Positions 6,626 to 62,064 of a stretch of DNA of 64,000 bases are shown here, piece by piece. The translations under genes and the position numbers were made by a program. Source of the stretch: a phage. The notes below the pieces were generated by a model. The model saw nothing but the letters and a program-made list of their open reading frames with translations, was not told where the DNA came from and did not search any database. The stretch lies in assembly GCA_019326865.1 (NCBI GenBank), contig GCA_019326865.1_4101.1. One strand, 5' to 3'. The first letter of the stretch is position 1, and every line of letters begins with the position of its first letter.

Positions 6626-7603
6626 ATGGCTCATCACGGCGTGTTTATGTACCCTTATAACCAGGAAGTATCATTGGGCAATTTTAATATGCCATTTAGT
6701 AATGAAAAACTAACTATCTATCGAGGGGCAAATAATAATTTATCTTTTACTGTTCACAACGCTGATGGAAAATATACTTTATTGAAAGATAATGAATATC
6801 TTACATTTATGATTTTTGATGCACGAAATAATACTAAACTATTTGATGTTGTATTGGAAAAGCAAGAACCAAGTTGGTTATCAGAAAGTGGTCAAGCTCG
6901 TCAAACATTGGGAAATAAAAAGAAAGTATACTATGGATGTATTGTTCCAGCAGGAGTTATTCAAGATACCAGTCCTGGTTCCAAATATAGATGGAGCATT
7001 ACTAAAGTAACTATGGATGGTTCACTTATAGAACCAACACAATATCTATACACTGGAATGAACTTTGAGGCATCAGCGGAGCTAATAATTTCAGACCAAG
7101 CAGCCCCAGTATTTGTTCCTAGTACTGAAATATCTACAGACAAAAATCCAGCCTGGACATCAATAAAGCGTTTATATAATGAACCAATTGGTAATGGTAT
7201 GATAGGTGAGTATGATATACTAGCATCAACTCCACTTCCAGCACAAATGCAGTATGGGTTGGTTGATGGGCTAAGTAGCATTGCAATCTATTTTGATAAA
7301 TTCATTGGAAGAATACAGTTACAAGGATGTTTGTGTAATAATGTACCTAATGATAATGAAAATTATAAATGGTTTATAATCAAATTAGATGGAAAGGATT
7401 ATATTGAAAATGGGATTGATATTGATGGATTTCCAAAAGAGCTTGATGGTATTCAAGCATTTAATTTCAAAGGAAATTATATGTGGTTGCGAATCGTAGT
7501 AGCAATTCATCCTAAAAATGTTCCAGTACCATACGACTATGCTGCTGTGCGAAAAGTGTATAATCCTTTATTAACTGTACCTAAAATTTTGATTCGCAGG
7601 TGA
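6626..7603 (+). CDS. hypothetical protein
   Basis: Start moved to ATG at 6626 after GGAAGGA RBS; about 325 aa. Confidence 0.55.
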   Translation: MAHHGVFMYPYNQEVSLGNFNMPFSNEKLTIYRGANNNLSFTVHNADGKYTLLKDNEYLTFMIFDARNNTKLFDVVLEKQEPSWLSESGQARQTLGNKKKVYYGCIVPAGVIQDTSPGSKYRWSITKVTMDGSLIEPTQYLYTGMNFEASAELIISDQAAPVFVPSTEISTDKNPAWTSIKRLYNEPIGNGMIGEYDILASTPLPAQMQYGLVDGLSSIAIYFDKFIGRIQLQGCLCNNVPNDNENYKWFIIKLDGKDYIENGIDIDGFPKELDGIQAFNFKGNYMWLRIVVAIHPKNVPVPYDYAAVRKVYNPLLTVPKILIRR

Positions 7604-7621
7604 GACAAAATTAGAAGGTGT

Positions 7622-7630
7622 GCTATAATC
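7622..7630 (+). promoter_or_regulatory. extended -10 promoter element (TGcTATAAT)
   Basis: TGcTATAAT about 28 nt upstream of primase start. Confidence 0.4.
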
Positions 7631-15356: not shown

Positions 15357-15692
15357 ATGAGATTTAGTGATCTTACTGAAGAGGCTCCTGGTAAGGATAT
15401 ACGCAATATGATTACTACTATTGCGTTGTCTTTAATGTCAACGGGCCGAGAAGATGTAAATGTTCAATCTTTGATTTCAGAAATCAAAAAGAGAACTAAT
15501 ATTGATGTTCCATACAATGTAATGATGGATATTTTGAATTCCCTTCCTTTTGTACAGGATGCCAATTCCGATGTTGTAACTTTTGTTGGAAATTCAGAAG
15601 AAGGTTCAGGTGAATTAGAACAAGATTCTGAAGATCAAGTTGAAGATTGGGCAACAAAAGCTGCGGTGTCAGCAAATAAACAAAAAAACTGA
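15357..15692 (+). CDS. hypothetical protein
   Basis: 111-aa ORF, acidic. Confidence 0.5.
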   Translation: MRFSDLTEEAPGKDIRNMITTIALSLMSTGREDVNVQSLISEIKKRTNIDVPYNVMMDILNSLPFVQDANSDVVTFVGNSEEGSGELEQDSEDQVEDWATKAAVSANKQKN

Positions 15693-15708
15693 GACAAATA
15701 AAAATATA

Positions 15709-15717
15709 ATGCTATAA
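15709..15717 (+). promoter_or_regulatory. extended -10 promoter element (TGcTATAAT)
   Basis: TGcTATAAT just upstream of RBS and start at 15732. Confidence 0.4.
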
Positions 15718-15731
15718 TTAGGAGTACACGG

Positions 15732-32772: not shown

Positions 32773-32777
32773 TAAAA

Positions 32778-32809
32778 ATATCGGGACATCTGGTCCCGAT
32801 ATTTTTTTT
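32778..32809 (+). terminator. rho-independent terminator
   Basis: atatcgggac-atctg-gtcccgatat hairpin plus T8. Confidence 0.8.
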
Positions 32810-32871
32810 GAGACAGAAATAACATTGGTGATACAATGTTTTATGACAAAGAGACATGATAAGGAATTCAA

Positions 32872-39092: not shown

Positions 39093-39570
39093 TGTGAAAT
39101 GTAATCTTAATGCAGTTGTTTATGCAATCAACTGTGGTGTAGATATCCAGTACTTGCAATTACAGGAAATTGATGAACCTGAAAGGTTAAAATTCAATGA
39201 TAACTGTAAAAAATTTGGCTTAGAACAACGTATGCTAGATTATACAATAGAACATGATAAAAATCATGAACTTTGGCGTTATGATCCTGTATACGATAAT
39301 ATAAATCTTCGTGATTATTTTTTAGAAAAGTGTACGTCAGATGAAGCACGAAAACGTGTTGAGTATGAACTTGATTTATATGAATATTATAATATGACTA
39401 AGCTATTGAGATGTATGATATGGCTAGTCGATTATATGGAAGAAAATAAGATCTTTTGGGGTCTTGGGCGTGGAAGCTCTGTTGCATCGTATTGTCTGTT
39501 TTTGATTGGTCTACATATGGTAGATTCATTGAAATATGATCTTGATGTTAATGAATTTTTGAAATGGTAG
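39028..39570 (+). CDS. DnaE (Pol III alpha)-like fragment carrying the GRGS motif
   Basis: C-terminal GLGRGSSVASYCLFLIGLHMVDSLKYDLDVNEFL parallels DnaE [34 protein letters not shown]; preceding YELDLYEYYNM resembles DnaE. Start uncertain. Confidence 0.45.
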   Translation: MKRPKRRKMKVQGNRFISPNGDVKCNLNAVVYAINCGVDIQYLQLQEIDEPERLKFNDNCKKFGLEQRMLDYTIEHDKNHELWRYDPVYDNINLRDYFLEKCTSDEARKRVEYELDLYEYYNMTKLLRCMIWLVDYMEENKIFWGLGRGSSVASYCLFLIGLHMVDSLKYDLDVNEFLKW

Positions 39571-39579
39571 AAAAACATG

Positions 39580-39588
39580 TGATATAAT
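39580..39588 (+). promoter_or_regulatory. extended -10 promoter element (TGaTATAAT)
   Basis: tgtgatataatgt, same 13-mer as at 2767. Confidence 0.4.
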
Positions 39589-39636
39589 GTTTGTTACAGA
39601 AGCATTATATCACACATACAATAAAAGGATTTTTAT

Positions 39637-39989: not shown

Positions 39990-40316
39990 ATGACTAAAAA
40001 AGTAATGACAGCATGTAAAGGTAAAGTTTTAGTAACTGAACTTGAACATGGTGAACGTAAAACAGCAGGTGGTATTGTTTTAACAAACGATGATGGTAAA
40101 ATTCGAGGTATTCGCTCCCGCTGGGCTAGAGTTTATTCTGTCGGTGAGGACATTACCGATATCAAAGAAGGACAATGGATTTTAATCGATCATGGACGAT
40201 GGTCCAGAACGATTGAAGTTGATGGTATCGAATTGAACTTAGTTGATTACCCTGCTGCTGTTAGTTTGGTGTCAGATGAAGACCCCCGAACTAAAATGCT
40301 GACATTTGGACGTTAA
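39990..40316 (+). CDS. groES: GroES-like co-chaperonin (T4 gp31-type)
   Basis: KTAGGIVL, GIRSRWARVYSVGED and WILIDHGRWS fit GroES pattern; 108 aa. Confidence 0.6.
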   Translation: MTKKVMTACKGKVLVTELEHGERKTAGGIVLTNDDGKIRGIRSRWARVYSVGEDITDIKEGQWILIDHGRWSRTIEVDGIELNLVDYPAAVSLVSDEDPRTKMLTFGR

Positions 40317-40359
40317 TATAATATAATTAAAGCTCGGAATAATTTCTGGGCTTTTTATT

Positions 40360-45632: not shown

Positions 45633-45661
45633 TTGACTAGCATCTGTGTTGCACGTATAAT
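45633..45661 (+). promoter_or_regulatory. sigma70-type promoter (TTGACT-17-TATAAT)
   Basis: Near-consensus -35, 17-nt spacer, consensus -10. Confidence 0.6.
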
Positions 45662-45709
45662 GTTTATCACAAAGCAGCACATCATATTAAATTAAACGAG
45701 GAATACTAA

Positions 45710-46858
45710 ATGTCCGAGAAAGAAATCAATCCTAAAAAAACAACTACCGCAGCTAAAACTACAAAACGTTCTACAAAACGTTCTACCAAAACCGCATCCA
45801 AAGGTCATACCATTGATGCAAGTGATATTTTTAACCAAACTACAAAATCACTCCCCGTACTGAAAGATGTTAAGGGAAATACTATGTCTCTAACAGTTCA
45901 AAACATCAACACTGTTGGTACAACTGCTGGTGCTGCTGTTGGGCGATTAGCTGATGAAATCATGTCTAAAGTTAATGTAACTGATGACAATACAGAGTTT
46001 GGAAAATCAATCACCACAATTCTCACATTGACTCGTGCAGTTGATATTGACAGTCTTCAAGAAGATAAATCAATTGTGGGGCGTATTAAGAAATTTTTTG
46101 TTAATGCTCAACAAAAAGTTGGTGATCAGTACAAAAATAGCAAAGAGCAAATTGACGAAATCATGAAAACTCTTCAAACTGGTATTAATCGCCAGCACGG
46201 AGAATGTGAATGGCTTGATAAAGCATATAATGAAAACAAAGAATATTTGTTTGAATTACGTGATACATTAGTTGGTTTGGAAGAAGTAACTAAATCACAA
46301 GATGCATTGTTAGAAGAAATGCAAAAAGACAAAAATGTAGACTCTTTTGCTATTCAAGAGCAGAAGATGATTTGTGAAGCACTTTCTAAACAGGAAGATA
46401 AGATTCGTCGTCTTATTATGATGTGCGAACTAAGTGGTCCACGTCTGATGAGTATGAAAAAAGTAAACTTGAACACTGTTTCTAAGTTTGAAGATTTAAA
46501 ATCTGTTGTTATTCCAGCATGGAAGTCTCAATTGGCTGAACAATTAATTTCCGAGCGTCAACGTAAGGATAATGAACTAGGCAATCTAATTGATAATGAG
46601 ACAAACCGTCTTTTGGAAACTAACTCTAAGATGGTTGCAGCAAATATGTTGGACGCAGCAAAGGCAAACAACCGTGGTATTGTGGATATTAAAACCTTGC
46701 GTAATGTACATAAAACGATGATTGACAGTATTGAAGCAGTTATTGAAGAAGAGAAAAAAGGCAAATTGGAACGTGAACGTGCTAAACAGGAAATTGCACA
46801 ACTTTCCTATGAACTGGAAGACACTCTTCGTGAAATTGCCGAAAAAGCTAACAAGTAA
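45710..46858 (+). CDS. hypothetical coiled-coil protein (possibly TelA/KlaA-like)
   Basis: 382 aa, basic low-complexity N-terminus then long predicted helices; TelA resemblance is size/composition only. Confidence 0.4.
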   Translation: MSEKEINPKKTTTAAKTTKRSTKRSTKTASKGHTIDASDIFNQTTKSLPVLKDVKGNTMSLTVQNINTVGTTAGAAVGRLADEIMSKVNVTDDNTEFGKSITTILTLTRAVDIDSLQEDKSIVGRIKKFFVNAQQKVGDQYKNSKEQIDEIMKTLQTGINRQHGECEWLDKAYNENKEYLFELRDTLVGLEEVTKSQDALLEEMQKDKNVDSFAIQEQKMICEALSKQEDKIRRLIMMCELSGPRLMSMKKVNLNTVSKFEDLKSVVIPAWKSQLAEQLISERQRKDNELGNLIDNETNRLLETNSKMVAANMLDAAKANNRGIVDIKTLRNVHKTMIDSIEAVIEEEKKGKLERERAKQEIAQLSYELEDTLREIAEKANK

Positions 46859-46861
46859 TAG

Positions 46862-46890
46862 TTGACATATGAGTGCGTTTTTAATATAAT
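46862..46890 (+). promoter_or_regulatory. sigma70-type promoter (TTGACA-17-TATAAT) inside terminator hairpin
   Basis: -35 at 46862-46867 and -10 at 46885-46890, lying within the stem-loop at 46871-46913. Confidence 0.55.
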
Positions 46891-46913
46891 CTTATTGAAA
46901 ACGCACTCTTTTT
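46871..46913 (+). terminator. rho-independent terminator
   Basis: gagtgcgtttt ... aaaacgcactc stem then TTTTT. Confidence 0.65.
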
Positions 46914-46937
46914 AATGTACAGATAAGGAACTAATTT

Positions 46938-47627
46938 ATGAAACGTCGTCATATTAGTGTTGATATTGAAACTCTTGGAACACCTGAACTTTCCGGTTAT
47001 GATATTATTATCCCAAATTATGCAGCAGTTGTAGTTCCAAGTAAACCTGAAAATGACATTCATCAGTTCTTATATGTTAAATTACCATACCAAGATCAAG
47101 TTGCTGCTGGATTAAAATCAGACGCAGGTGCAATGGATTTTTGGATGAATACATGCCAGAAAGAATATCCAAATGCATATACTGAAGTTGCTAGTACTAT
47201 GAAAATCAAAGCACCTGAATTATATGGACCTAATGAACAATCACGACGTTTTTTTGCATACAGTAGTATTGTTGATTTTTGGAAAGAATTACGTTACAAT
47301 GAACATGGCGAAGAAGTTCCTCATTCTGTATGGGGTAATGGATGCAACTTCGATTGTAGTATTTTACAAGCAAACCATTTAAAATTAATGAACGCGGGTG
47401 AATTGTGGAAGTATGATGCACCTGAAAATGCACGCACATTGAAACGTTTATTGAATGAAGAAGCTCGTATTGAAATGGATGAAATCGTCTCGGTACAATT
47501 GGCTAAATTTGTTACATATGCAAACAAGTGTGGGATCAATGGGTTGGAGTTGCACCACCCACTGTTTGATGCGGCACGTGAAGCAATCCAGATTTCATTT
47601 TGTCTAAACAAGCTTAAAATGGATTAA
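46938..47627 (+). CDS. DEDD 3'-5' exonuclease (DexA-like)
   Basis: N-terminal ISVDIETLG Exo I motif; 229 aa. Confidence 0.55.
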   Translation: MKRRHISVDIETLGTPELSGYDIIIPNYAAVVVPSKPENDIHQFLYVKLPYQDQVAAGLKSDAGAMDFWMNTCQKEYPNAYTEVASTMKIKAPELYGPNEQSRRFFAYSSIVDFWKELRYNEHGEEVPHSVWGNGCNFDCSILQANHLKLMNAGELWKYDAPENARTLKRLLNEEARIEMDEIVSVQLAKFVTYANKCGINGLELHHPLFDAAREAIQISFCLNKLKMD

Positions 47628-47630
47628 TAC

Positions 47631-48725
47631 ATGAATTTTATTATTCTGTTAATACCTTCTCTAATTGTAGTATTCGTTATGAAATACATGTACGATAAGC
47701 ACATCAGTACTAAAGAATTGATGATTCATATTGGTTGTTGTGTATTAGGTGCTGCTCTTGTACTTGGGATTTCATATGCAATTAATTACAGCCAACTATA
47801 TGATGTAGAGATTTTAAATGGACAAGTAACATCAAAATACAATCATAAAGAAATTTGTACACAATCAAGTTCATGTAAGCACTATACATGGCATGAGAAG
47901 TGTCACACACGATATGATAGCAAAGGTAAATCACATCGTGAGTGTGAATCATATAAAGTATTTGATTACTCATATGAAGTTGATTGGTATGTGAAAAGTA
48001 CAGTAGGTGTGTTTGTGATTGAACGTGTAAACCGTCAAGGCACAATGACACCACCACGTTGGCAACAAGTTATGATTGGTGACTATGCAGCAGCAGAAAG
48101 TTCATATATCAACTATCTATTTGCTGATAAGAACTCATTGTTTAGTCCAGCAGAAATACACAACATGTATGATGAAAAGTATCTTAGTACTATTCCAGAA
48201 TACCCAAGTGTAGTTGATTATTATAAAACCCATCATGTAATTAACACTACAAATTACAACGTTGATGGTTACGATGAATACCTTCGTAATGAGCTAAAAA
48301 CTATGGGTACACGTAAGCAGGTAAACATCCAAGTTCTGGTGTATAATTACAAAGATAGTGATTTTGTTGCTGCAACTCTTGCAAAGTGGCGTGGTGGTAA
48401 GAAGAATGATGTTATTATGTTCTTTGGTATTGATAATGATGGTAATGTTGTTAAATTCAACAGTACCTCATTTGCACAAGGTATGAAGAATGAAGAGTTA
48501 CATGCAAAGATGCGTATTGATGCATTAAATGAAAAATTAACTCTTGACTTACTATCCAAAGAAGTGCATAATATTGATACACAGTTCGAGAGACTCTCTA
48601 ATAAAGAGTTTGAGTACCTATCAGTAAAAATGGAACCTAGAAAAGATGTTCTTATTGGTGCTTCCATTGTATTGTTGATTCTGTCTATTTTCATTGGCCT
48701 TTATATGAGGGATAACAAATTATGA
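47631..48725 (+). CDS. membrane protein (N- and C-terminal TM segments)
   Basis: 364 aa; hydrophobic N-terminus and C-terminus, Cys-rich middle. Confidence 0.55.
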   Translation: MNFIILLIPSLIVVFVMKYMYDKHISTKELMIHIGCCVLGAALVLGISYAINYSQLYDVEILNGQVTSKYNHKEICTQSSSCKHYTWHEKCHTRYDSKGKSHRECESYKVFDYSYEVDWYVKSTVGVFVIERVNRQGTMTPPRWQQVMIGDYAAAESSYINYLFADKNSLFSPAEIHNMYDEKYLSTIPEYPSVVDYYKTHHVINTTNYNVDGYDEYLRNELKTMGTRKQVNIQVLVYNYKDSDFVAATLAKWRGGKKNDVIMFFGIDNDGNVVKFNSTSFAQGMKNEELHAKMRIDALNEKLTLDLLSKEVHNIDTQFERLSNKEFEYLSVKMEPRKDVLIGASIVLLILSIFIGLYMRDNKL

Positions 48726-49276
48726 ATGGTAAAATTTTTGCGTTGATTGGTATTGTAGTTGTTGTAGGTCTGATGATGATTGGTGCTGTCAGTATGTATG
48801 TTGATACACATGACCGTGCAGTTGAATTCGAAGGTAACATTAAAAAGTACAATGACGCGTCCGAAAGCCAACTGAGTACCTACACTCTTACAATTCAAGA
48901 AAAGGTACAAGTTTCTGATAAGTACAAAGATGCATTGAAAGAAACAATTGAATCATACTTTAAAGGACGTGAAGGTGTTGACCAAAAATTCGTAATGTCA
49001 CAAATCCAACAACAGGTTCCAAATCTCGATCCTAAGATTTATCAGGAACTAATGGCTACAATTGAATCAGGACGTAATAAGTTCAACAATCTTCAGAAAA
49101 TGAAAATTGATCAGTGTACTGATTATGCAAAGTTCCGTAAAGGTTTTTGGAATTCCAGAGTTCTTGATAAAGATATTTTCCCAGGTAAAGAAATTGAACA
49201 TCTATGTACTGTAGTTTCTGATATACGTACTAAGAAAGCAATGGATACTGGTATTCAAGAAGTAATTAAACTATAA
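48722..49276 (+). CDS. membrane-anchored protein
   Basis: 184 aa, N-terminal TM helix, start overlaps upstream stop. Confidence 0.5.
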   Translation: MNGKIFALIGIVVVVGLMMIGAVSMYVDTHDRAVEFEGNIKKYNDASESQLSTYTLTIQEKVQVSDKYKDALKETIESYFKGREGVDQKFVMSQIQQQVPNLDPKIYQELMATIESGRNKFNNLQKMKIDQCTDYAKFRKGFWNSRVLDKDIFPGKEIEHLCTVVSDIRTKKAMDTGIQEVIKL

Positions 49277-49285
49277 TTAAATGTT

Positions 49286-49308
49286 GGGGGTACTTTGTAC
49301 CCCCTTTT
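49286..49308 (+). terminator. rho-independent terminator
   Basis: gggggtac-ttt-gtaccccc hairpin then TTTT. Confidence 0.75.
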
Positions 49309-51809: not shown

Positions 51810-51971
51810 ATGAAAAAAACTTGGAAAATATTCACAATACCTGCTATAATGTTGTTATTGACACTTTTCACACCACAGAGTCATGTATTATCTCTTAATA
51901 TTGTGGAAATAATTCTTCTTGTAATTCACTGTGTCGTGTGTTATAATTATGTAAAAGGTGATAAAGAATGA
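51810..51971 (+). CDS. small membrane protein
   Basis: AAGGA RBS then ATG at 51810; hydrophobic 53-aa product. Confidence 0.4.
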   Translation: MKKTWKIFTIPAIMLLLTLFTPQSHVLSLNIVEIILLVIHCVVCYNYVKGDKE

Positions 51972-57021: not shown

Positions 57022-57273
57022 ATGAGTGAACATAGTGCGGTGCTTAAAAAGATTTTAAAGGAAATTGATGGTGAGTTTAATGTCACAGAAGAAGAATATC
57101 AGCATTGGAAGAAAGATTTCGAACAACTAACCGAGTATGATAAAGTGTTCAATATGATTGGTGTAATTAGCCAGTACTTACTTGGTGGAGGACGTGCAAG
57201 TGCTTCAATTCTGGCATCTGCAATCATCTGCACATCACGATGGTGTGATGAAAAAAGTTTGGAAGATTTCTAA
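57022..57273 (+). CDS. hypothetical protein
   Basis: Start at 57022 after GGAGA RBS; a 25-aa upstream ORF (56952..57029) with its own RBS overlaps by ATGAGTGA. Confidence 0.45.
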   Translation: MSEHSAVLKKILKEIDGEFNVTEEEYQHWKKDFEQLTEYDKVFNMIGVISQYLLGGGRASASILASAIICTSRWCDEKSLEDF

Positions 57274-57289
57274 ATAAGATGCTATAATA

Positions 57290-62003: not shown

Positions 62004-62032
62004 TTGACACATGAAAATGGAGTATGTATAAT
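62004..62032 (+). promoter_or_regulatory. sigma70-type promoter (TTGACA-17-TATAAT)
   Basis: Consensus hexamers, 17-nt spacer, about 30 nt upstream of start at 62065. Confidence 0.6.
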
Positions 62033-62064
62033 ACTCCTATATTAATTAAACGAGGATATACGAA

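Follow-up and report, generated by a model that had tools for sequence, protein, structure and literature searches.

The window, i.e. the whole 64-kb stretch of phage DNA analyzed here, has an A+T content of about 66% and carries nearly all its genes on the + strand. A 2-kb query around the element under study matched 32 phage records, the best of them at 94-95% identity. These best matches include 121Q, PBECO4, G17, phAPEC6, and slurp01, and the phages matched are jumbo coliphages of the genus Asteriusvirus (320-385 kb). Judging from its sequence, the window is that of an Asteriusvirus, a jumbo coliphage of the 121Q/G17 kind. The element occupies a 79-nt gap which has a TelA-like gene upstream and a 3'-5' exonuclease gene downstream. 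The features of this junction and of the genes flanking it are as follows:

45710..46858, + strand: TelA-like (toxic anion resistance) gene; open reading frame, Pfam TelA E = 1e-37, PHROG 5890
46856..46861, + strand: tandem stop codons TAA TAG, with the -35 hexamer following at once; invariant in all 14 Asteriusvirus sequences
46862..46867, + strand: -35 hexamer TTGACA, a consensus match kept in all 14 Asteriusvirus sequences
46871..46886, + strand: left arm of the hairpin, in the promoter spacer, sharing its last 2 nt with the -10 hexamer
46885..46890, + strand: -10 hexamer TATAAT, a consensus match kept in all 14 sequences, lying partly in the top of the left arm and partly in the loop
46887-46892, + strand: loop of the hairpin, 6 nt
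46893..46908, + strand: right arm of the hairpin, containing the predicted transcription start
46909..46913, + strand: T-tract TTTTT (the U-tract of the RNA), abutting C46908, at about +13 to +17 of the nested promoter
46925..46929, + strand: Shine-Dalgarno sequence AAGGA, 8 nt before the exonuclease ATG (46938); AAGGA in every relative
46938..49276, + strand: downstream three-gene unit, delimited from open reading frames, profile matches, and annotations in relatives
46938-47627, + strand: Rv2179c-like/DEDD-type 3'-5' exonuclease gene; Pfam PF16473 E = 3e-10, PHROG 255 'exonuclease' E = 2e-35
47631-48725, + strand: gene for a 364-aa protein; open reading frame
48722-49276, + strand: gene for a 184-aa protein, annotated as LemA in relatives
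49286..49308, + strand: strong canonical terminator, GGGGGTAC-TTT-GTACCCCC followed by TTTT, predicted to close the three-gene unit

The exonuclease gene had been called DexA-like in an earlier sequence-only reading of this DNA, a name that is approximate but reasonable for a member of the Rv2179c-like/DEDD-type family (Pfam PF16473, PHROG 255). The terminator at 49286..49308 folds at -14.7 kcal/mol (z = -3.5), and an equivalent terminator is also annotated in the G17 and UE-S1 records. A search of the 44-50 kb region against Rfam gave only a chance snoRNA-like match.

Overlap of the promoter with the hairpin

The two hexamers, which are separated by a 17-nt spacer, match the sigma70 consensus at 12 of 12 positions, and this is the sole 12/12 site in a 14-kb scan. 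In the whole window, the perfect TTGACA-N17-TATAAT arrangement occurs four times, always on the + strand, versus the 0.03 occurrences expected from shuffled sequences. Sites with at most one mismatch number 15, versus 2.3 expected, and at a loose threshold 80 promoter-like sites were found versus 73 expected. A ribosome-binding site and a start codon are found downstream of it, and among the relatives the hexamers and their spacing are kept while the sequence of the spacer diverges. The transcription start is predicted at 46897 +/- 1, about 7 nt past the -10 hexamer and inside the right arm of the hairpin, and a promoter which matches the consensus perfectly may be limited at the step of promoter escape. 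A literature search for transcriptome or promoter mapping on phAPEC6, 121Q, PBECO4, and Asteriusvirus yielded none, and the RpoD-like promoters given in the paper on CBB are predicted only.

The stem of the hairpin comprises 16 bp, five of which are G-C pairs, and is closed by a G-C pair. Folded alone, the hairpin has a minimum free energy of -22.1 kcal/mol (z = -8.6), and in a 71-nt context the fold amounts to -23.4 kcal/mol (z = -5.8). It has the features generally associated with an intrinsic terminator: a stable hairpin containing G-C pairs, a U-tract immediately 3' of it, and a position just past a stop codon. The efficiency that might be predicted from these features is tempered by the length of the stem and its A/U-rich upper half, which are less typical of efficient E. 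coli terminators. The GenBank record of G17 lists this very hairpin as a terminator predicted by ARNOLD and annotates no promoter there.

The sequence-only reading had described a consensus promoter nested inside a terminator hairpin at 46862-46913, and the sequence and coordinates were confirmed, with a 12/12 match of the hexamers, a 16-bp stem, and the TTTTT tract. The -35 hexamer, which was said to sit just before the left arm, ends 3 nt ahead of it. The placement of the -10 hexamer in the loop depends on how the stem is delimited: when only the G+C-rich 11-bp core (GAGTGCGTTTT/AAAACGCACTC) is considered, the entire hexamer lies within a 16-nt A/U-rich apical region, whereas in the full 16-bp stem its first two bases form the top of the left arm and only the remaining four lie in the 6-nt loop. 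In the coordinates of the nested promoter, the hairpin spans from about -26 to +12, and the right arm and the U-tract together run from about -4 to +17. The hairpin (46871-46908) therefore overlaps the spacer, the -10 hexamer, and the nucleotides from about +1 to +12, and the terminator, the promoter, the 5'UTR, and the ribosome-binding site are all packed into 79 nt.

This geometry bears on what each of the two transcripts could fold into. The hairpin persists when it is folded within 154 nt of upstream mRNA, in line with the earlier claim that transcripts arriving from upstream would form it whole. The RNA from position 46897 onward folds at only -5.1 kcal/mol (z = +1.2), which is no better than shuffled sequences, so that no stable structure would be expected ahead of the U-tract; the predicted start being located inside the right arm, this agrees with the claim that RNA started at the promoter would contain this arm alone.

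Conservation of the junction in Asteriusvirus

The same junction was aligned in the window and 13 other Asteriusvirus genomes, giving 14 sequences with flanks ranging from about 97% to about 74% identity. All the Asteriusvirus records inspected share one gene order around the junction. The tandem stop codons, TTGACA, and TATAAT were found in all 14 sequences, as was a hairpin followed by a T-tract. The spacer measures 17-18 nt in 13 of them and 15 nt in the unverified record of CMSTMSU, and the loop measures 6-14 nt in most of the relatives and 4 nt in phage A4. In CMSTMSU (L006 1857-1939), the 15-nt spacer results from a 2-nt deletion, and the TelA gene and neighboring genes are fragmented or frameshifted; since this record is flagged UNVERIFIED_ORG, sequencing errors are the likely cause.

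In the part of the stem that can be aligned, 96.3% of the cells are paired. In the JNE01/Turkey5 clade, two pairs are altered on both sides, GAGTGCG/CGCACTC becoming AGGTGCG/CGCACCT, so that the pairing expected of an intrinsic terminator has been kept through compensatory change. The support drawn from this covariation is modest in amount, as the alignable set contains two double-changed pairs and 34 of 500 shuffles reach two. In phage A4, the hairpin is an unrelated one (ATGTGCCCATT-GTAT-AATGGGCACAT followed by ATTTTATT; -16.8 kcal/mol, z = -4.5), located in the same nested position, while TTGACA and TATAAT are unchanged and the -10 hexamer straddles the loop and the right arm. The fact that the hexamers, a hairpin, and a T-tract have been kept there although the hairpin itself has been replaced indicates that selection has kept the architecture rather than the sequence, and we regard A4 as the strongest single argument for a nested arrangement. 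More generally, a promoter and a terminator which are both kept while the sequence between them changes are what would be expected with selection acting on both.

In RaK2 and Serratia phage BF, which belong to other genera, the telA/exonuclease junction has a plain terminator only, and the nesting is therefore confined to one genus. Serratia phage BF carries an extra 108-aa ORF (BF_0339, 'gp94'; L010 2171-2497) between the TelA-like and exonuclease genes. When IMG/VR was searched with the exonuclease protein for distant junctions, only two new contigs were obtained, both with unrelated upstream regions.

Two alternatives to a nested terminator and promoter have to be weighed against these data. 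In the first of them, only the promoter would be functional and the inverted repeat would act at the DNA level, either as the operator of a dimeric regulator shutting off an early promoter or as a supercoil-driven cruciform sequestering the -10 hexamer. The repeat does bracket the -10 hexamer and the start, which is where repressors act, its arms often contain GTG...CAC, and its A/T-rich center might favor cruciform extrusion; moreover, a repeat which brackets the telA promoter (45633) in the same way, but lacks a U-tract, is kept in three genera. However, neither the sequence of the arms nor their spacing is conserved, the loop varying between 6 and 14 nt in most relatives and A4 having a 4-nt loop with unrelated arms. 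This variability fits selection on base pairing rather than on the binding site of a protein. All the relatives have a T-tract after the stem, and no candidate regulator was identified. A protein operator was rejected as the main explanation on the grounds that arm sequence and spacing are not conserved, and an inverted repeat acting on DNA seems, as a whole, quite improbable.

In the second, only the terminator would be functional, and the promoter match would be an unused by-product of the A/T-rich top of the hairpin in an A/T-rich genome. With an A+T content of about 66%, TATAAT-like strings are indeed common, as indicated by the 80 sites found versus 73 expected at the loose threshold, and a plain terminator suffices here in RaK2 and Serratia phage BF. 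What makes this proposal very improbable is that chance would yield a 12/12 match with 17-nt spacing only 0.03 times per window, that none of the 14 sequences has lost the hexamers, not even A4 with its wholly replaced hairpin, and that the promoter is suitably spaced from the Shine-Dalgarno sequence and ATG that follow it.

Proposed mechanism and known composite elements

We take the element to be the intrinsic terminator of a monocistronic telA-like transcript, interleaved with the consensus sigma70 promoter of the next unit, and we give this interpretation a probability of roughly 75%. The upstream unit would consist of the telA-like gene, the RNA of which would end at the hairpin: an RNA coming from upstream has both arms and could form the 16-bp hairpin ahead of UUUUU, leading to the release of the polymerase at about 46909-46915. 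The host polymerase, presumably early in infection, would recognize TTGACA-17-TATAAT and start at about 46897, within the right arm. Since the RNA made from this promoter lacks the left arm, the hairpin cannot form and the polymerase would pass the U-tract (+13 to +17). The transcripts of the nested promoter would then continue through the exonuclease, 364-aa, and LemA-like genes up to the terminator at 49286-49304. The benefit of such an arrangement is likely to be an economy of space.

The release site lies within the promoter's own footprint, so that each upstream polymerase would have to cross the whole promoter before terminating. It is therefore likely, from this analysis of the geometry, that transcription of telA transiently occludes the nested promoter as a side effect. 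The element probably removes the read-through RNA but not the interference between the two units. The sequence-only reading had concluded that expression of the downstream operon is uncoupled from upstream read-through; this may hold for the RNA, which would be removed, but probably not for the promoter, given that release would occur inside its footprint and that coupling of the two units by occlusion has been proposed for an overlap of this kind at tufB-secE (PMC6735719). Seen from the sequence, that interpretation was largely right, the uncoupling being overstated.

The same reading had also treated the arrangement as a one-off, whereas a class of comparable elements had already been described (PMC2839356, PMC4122927). 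Promoter-early stem-loops (PeSLs) are known from the T4-like phages RB49/phi1, PST/T4, and nt-1/KVP40 (Arbiol et al., 2010, PMC2839356; Comeau et al., 2014, PMC4122927). They consist, in this order, of an upstream stop codon, an A/T-rich tract, a consensus TTGACA-N17-TATAAT with a stable stem-loop, a Shine-Dalgarno sequence, and an ATG (PMC2839356, PMC4122927). The stem-loops of the RB49/phi1 PeSLs lie between the -35 and -10 hexamers or overlap the -10 (PMC2839356), and both promoter activity and terminator/attenuator activity were demonstrated for them in lacZ reporters (PMC2839356). The stem-loop has been proposed to terminate or attenuate upstream transcription, which the promoter would then restart (PMC2839356, PMC4122927), and the element at 46862 might also reset transcript boundaries in the way proposed for these PeSL cassettes of T4-like phages. 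We found PeSLs again in the DNA of RB49, for example TTGAC-AGGGGATC-acc-GATCCCCT-ATAAT, along with two copies in which the stem-loop lies over the -10 hexamer.

The present element resembles the PeSLs in that a consensus sigma70 promoter and a stem-loop are located between an upstream stop codon and a Shine-Dalgarno sequence with its ATG. It differs from them in several respects. In RB49, the stem-loop usually lies wholly in the spacer, or over the -10 hexamer and ending before the start, whereas here the right arm extends past the start; the RB49 stem is rich in G/C tracts with the -10 hexamer next to it, whereas the present hairpin has a canonical U-tract. The PeSLs of RB49 have A-runs upstream of the -35 hexamer, whereas here 20 of the 30 nt are A or T, which is the genome average of about 66%. 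The lack of an A/T-rich upstream tract can be explained by the fact that this sequence encodes the C-terminus of TelA. RB49 carries its PeSLs in many nearly identical copies, each of about 100 bp, which are linked to indels, whereas the present element is located at a stable gene junction; a blastn-short search of the 64-kb window for a second copy returned, beyond the hexamers, only the element itself and its own inverted repeat. Lastly, the phages carrying PeSLs belong to the Straboviridae and the present phage, an Asteriusvirus, does not. Membership of the PeSLs in the strict sense was rejected, the cassette being single-copy in the window and the A/T-rich upstream tract missing: the element would act like a PeSL but fails two of the features by which this family of mobile repeated cassettes is defined. 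The idea that it might mainly be a PeSL-type recombination module, providing homology through which adjacent ORFs could be swapped or excised, the control of transcription being secondary, recalls the indels and mini-circles mediated by the RB49/phi1 PeSLs (PMC2839356) and the position of the extra ORF of Serratia phage BF, exactly between telA and the exonuclease gene, but it is extremely improbable in view of the single cassette copy (beyond the hexamers) in the 64-kb window and of the identical gene order at the junction in all the Asteriusvirus records inspected.

The element belongs to a broader known kind, that of overlapping terminator-promoter composite elements. The terminator-promoter overlap at tufB-secE, described in 2019 (PMC6735719), is conserved and constrains insertion between the two units. 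A higher load of upstream polymerase lowered the downstream expression there, from which the authors inferred promoter occlusion (PMC6735719). In both cases, the upstream unit ends in a terminator that overlaps the promoter of the downstream one, and it is this overlap as such that the likeness concerns; the tufB-secE overlaps are chromosomal and their downstream effect was established genetically, whereas the phage element is known from its sequence. Two preprints are, in outline, concerned with related matters: one with genome-wide promoter-terminator coupling in bacteria (bioRxiv 10.64898/2026.08.19.745784), the other with terminators which have promoter activity, namely the class II terminators of T7, which have no hairpin (bioRxiv 10.64898/2026.02.12.705533). 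Both appear, at least in their general argument, to hold that where two units adjoin, the signals for initiation and termination are often coupled or share sequence. Promoter-in-terminator overlaps are not described in a paper on the Mycoplasma transcriptome.

The terminator-promoter overlaps and their consequences having already been described, no new mechanism is involved here. The element is real and conserved, and terminator-promoter composites are known both from T4-like phages and from bacterial operons. What the present case adds to them is a geometry with an explicit escape from self-termination, because the RNA made from the promoter lacks one arm. It also extends the idea of composite promoter/terminator cassettes, as developed for the PeSLs, from the T4-like Straboviridae to the Rak2-like jumbo phages. 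As regards the annotation of Asteriusvirus genomes, the element would set the boundaries between units: if a terminator and a promoter are interleaved here, telA would be monocistronic and the exonuclease, 364-aa, and LemA-like genes would form a three-gene early unit. A consensus promoter can be concealed in a hairpin annotated solely as a terminator, as in the G17 record. The element could also be of interest to synthetic biologists, as a 'stop-and-restart' part of only 52 nt.

Other promoters bracketed by hairpins

The telA promoter (TTGACT-17-TATAAT, 45633-45661) has the same geometry, with a left arm in the spacer and the -10 hexamer in the loop. Its 8-bp inverted repeat consists of TGTGTTGC at 45645-52 and GCAGCACA at 45674-81 (about +6 to +13) and is devoid of a U-tract, and the fold taken alone is not significant (z = -1.2). 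A repeat of 7-11 bp was found at this promoter in all 10 relatives examined, which belong to three genera and include RaK2 and Serratia phage BF. The stems have been turned over, and read GTGCTGC/GCAGCAC, GTGTTGC/GCAACAC, or, in Serratia phage BF, GAGAGTG/CACTCTC. The absence of a U-tract from this hairpin is a hint that such hairpins may serve a purpose besides or beyond canonical termination.

The frequency of bracketing hairpins was assessed at 122 'TAATAG-TTGACA-N16-18-TATAAT' sites sampled among diverse viral contigs of IMG/VR, counting hairpins with a score of at least 18. Hairpins bracketing the -10 hexamer were present at 14 of the 122 sites, versus a background of 2.65% (p = 5e-6), and only four of these 14 have a T-rich tail. 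Bracketing hairpins are enriched 4- to 15-fold in this viral-contig sample. The loci, numbered in the range from L020 to L139, include L055, L060, L066, L080, L108, and L132; L066 has two copies with the same stem, in the manner of PeSLs. Close relatives of the L055 and L066 viral contigs were not found among isolated phages. Promoter-bracketing hairpins are a recurrent phage design, of which the element at 46862 is the case provided with a full canonical terminator.

A wider proposal would be that the hairpins bracketing the -10 hexamer and the start of early promoters, whose left arm occupies the spacer and whose right arm falls among the first 10-20 nt transcribed, are a conserved regulatory device with a role beyond termination, in the Rak2-like jumbo phages as well as in many others. 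The hairpin might hold a terminating polymerase inside the footprint of the promoter and thus allow immediate re-initiation, or it might make an early promoter sensitive to upstream transcription or, via cruciform extrusion, to supercoiling. The hairpin kept at the telA promoter in three genera, two further examples in the window (39559 and 62004), and the enrichment in the viral-contig sample are compatible with this proposal, which we nevertheless consider unlikely.

Several other sites in the window combine promoter-like sequences with hairpins or terminators. At 39559-39614, the -10 hexamer of an extended -10 promoter-like sequence (TTGAAA-18-TATAAT, preceded by TGTGA) falls within the left arm of a hairpin with a 15-bp stem, TGTGATATAATG.../...CATTATATCACA, which folds at -17.3 kcal/mol (z = -5.5) and is not followed by a T-run. 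At 62004-62037, a 7-bp hairpin (GGAGTAT-gtata-ATACTCC, z = -4.6) straddles the -10 hexamer of a perfect consensus promoter. The 5'UTR of this promoter shares a 13-nt stretch, consisting of TTAAACGAGGA and its flanks, with the 5'UTR of telA (45690-45702), and nothing else in the window hints at a repeated cassette. The overlap takes a different form at 40299-40354, where a near-consensus promoter, CTGACA-17-TATAAT, overlaps the 3' end of the gene located at 39990-40316 and abuts the terminator at 40329-40354, the predicted start falling in the left arm of this terminator.

At 32773-32837, the T-run of a terminator runs straight into a -35-like box, TTGAGACA. The motif 'TGAGACA' followed 16-18 nt further on by (TGC)TATAAT or TACAAT was found at three intergenic sites (32773-32837, 7600-7629, and 15689-15718), and 'TTGGAA-N15-TGCTATAAT' at two sites (51821-51850 and 57259-57288). 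Based on their sequences, the TGAGACA and TTGGAA sites may form a second class of promoters, with a divergent -35 hexamer and an extended -10. Lastly, at 2748-2778, the stop codon of the upstream gene lies in the loop of a hairpin, AGCGGG-ataaa-CCCGCT, immediately after which comes an extended -10 sequence, TGTGATATAAT, making this another tight terminator-to-promoter junction.
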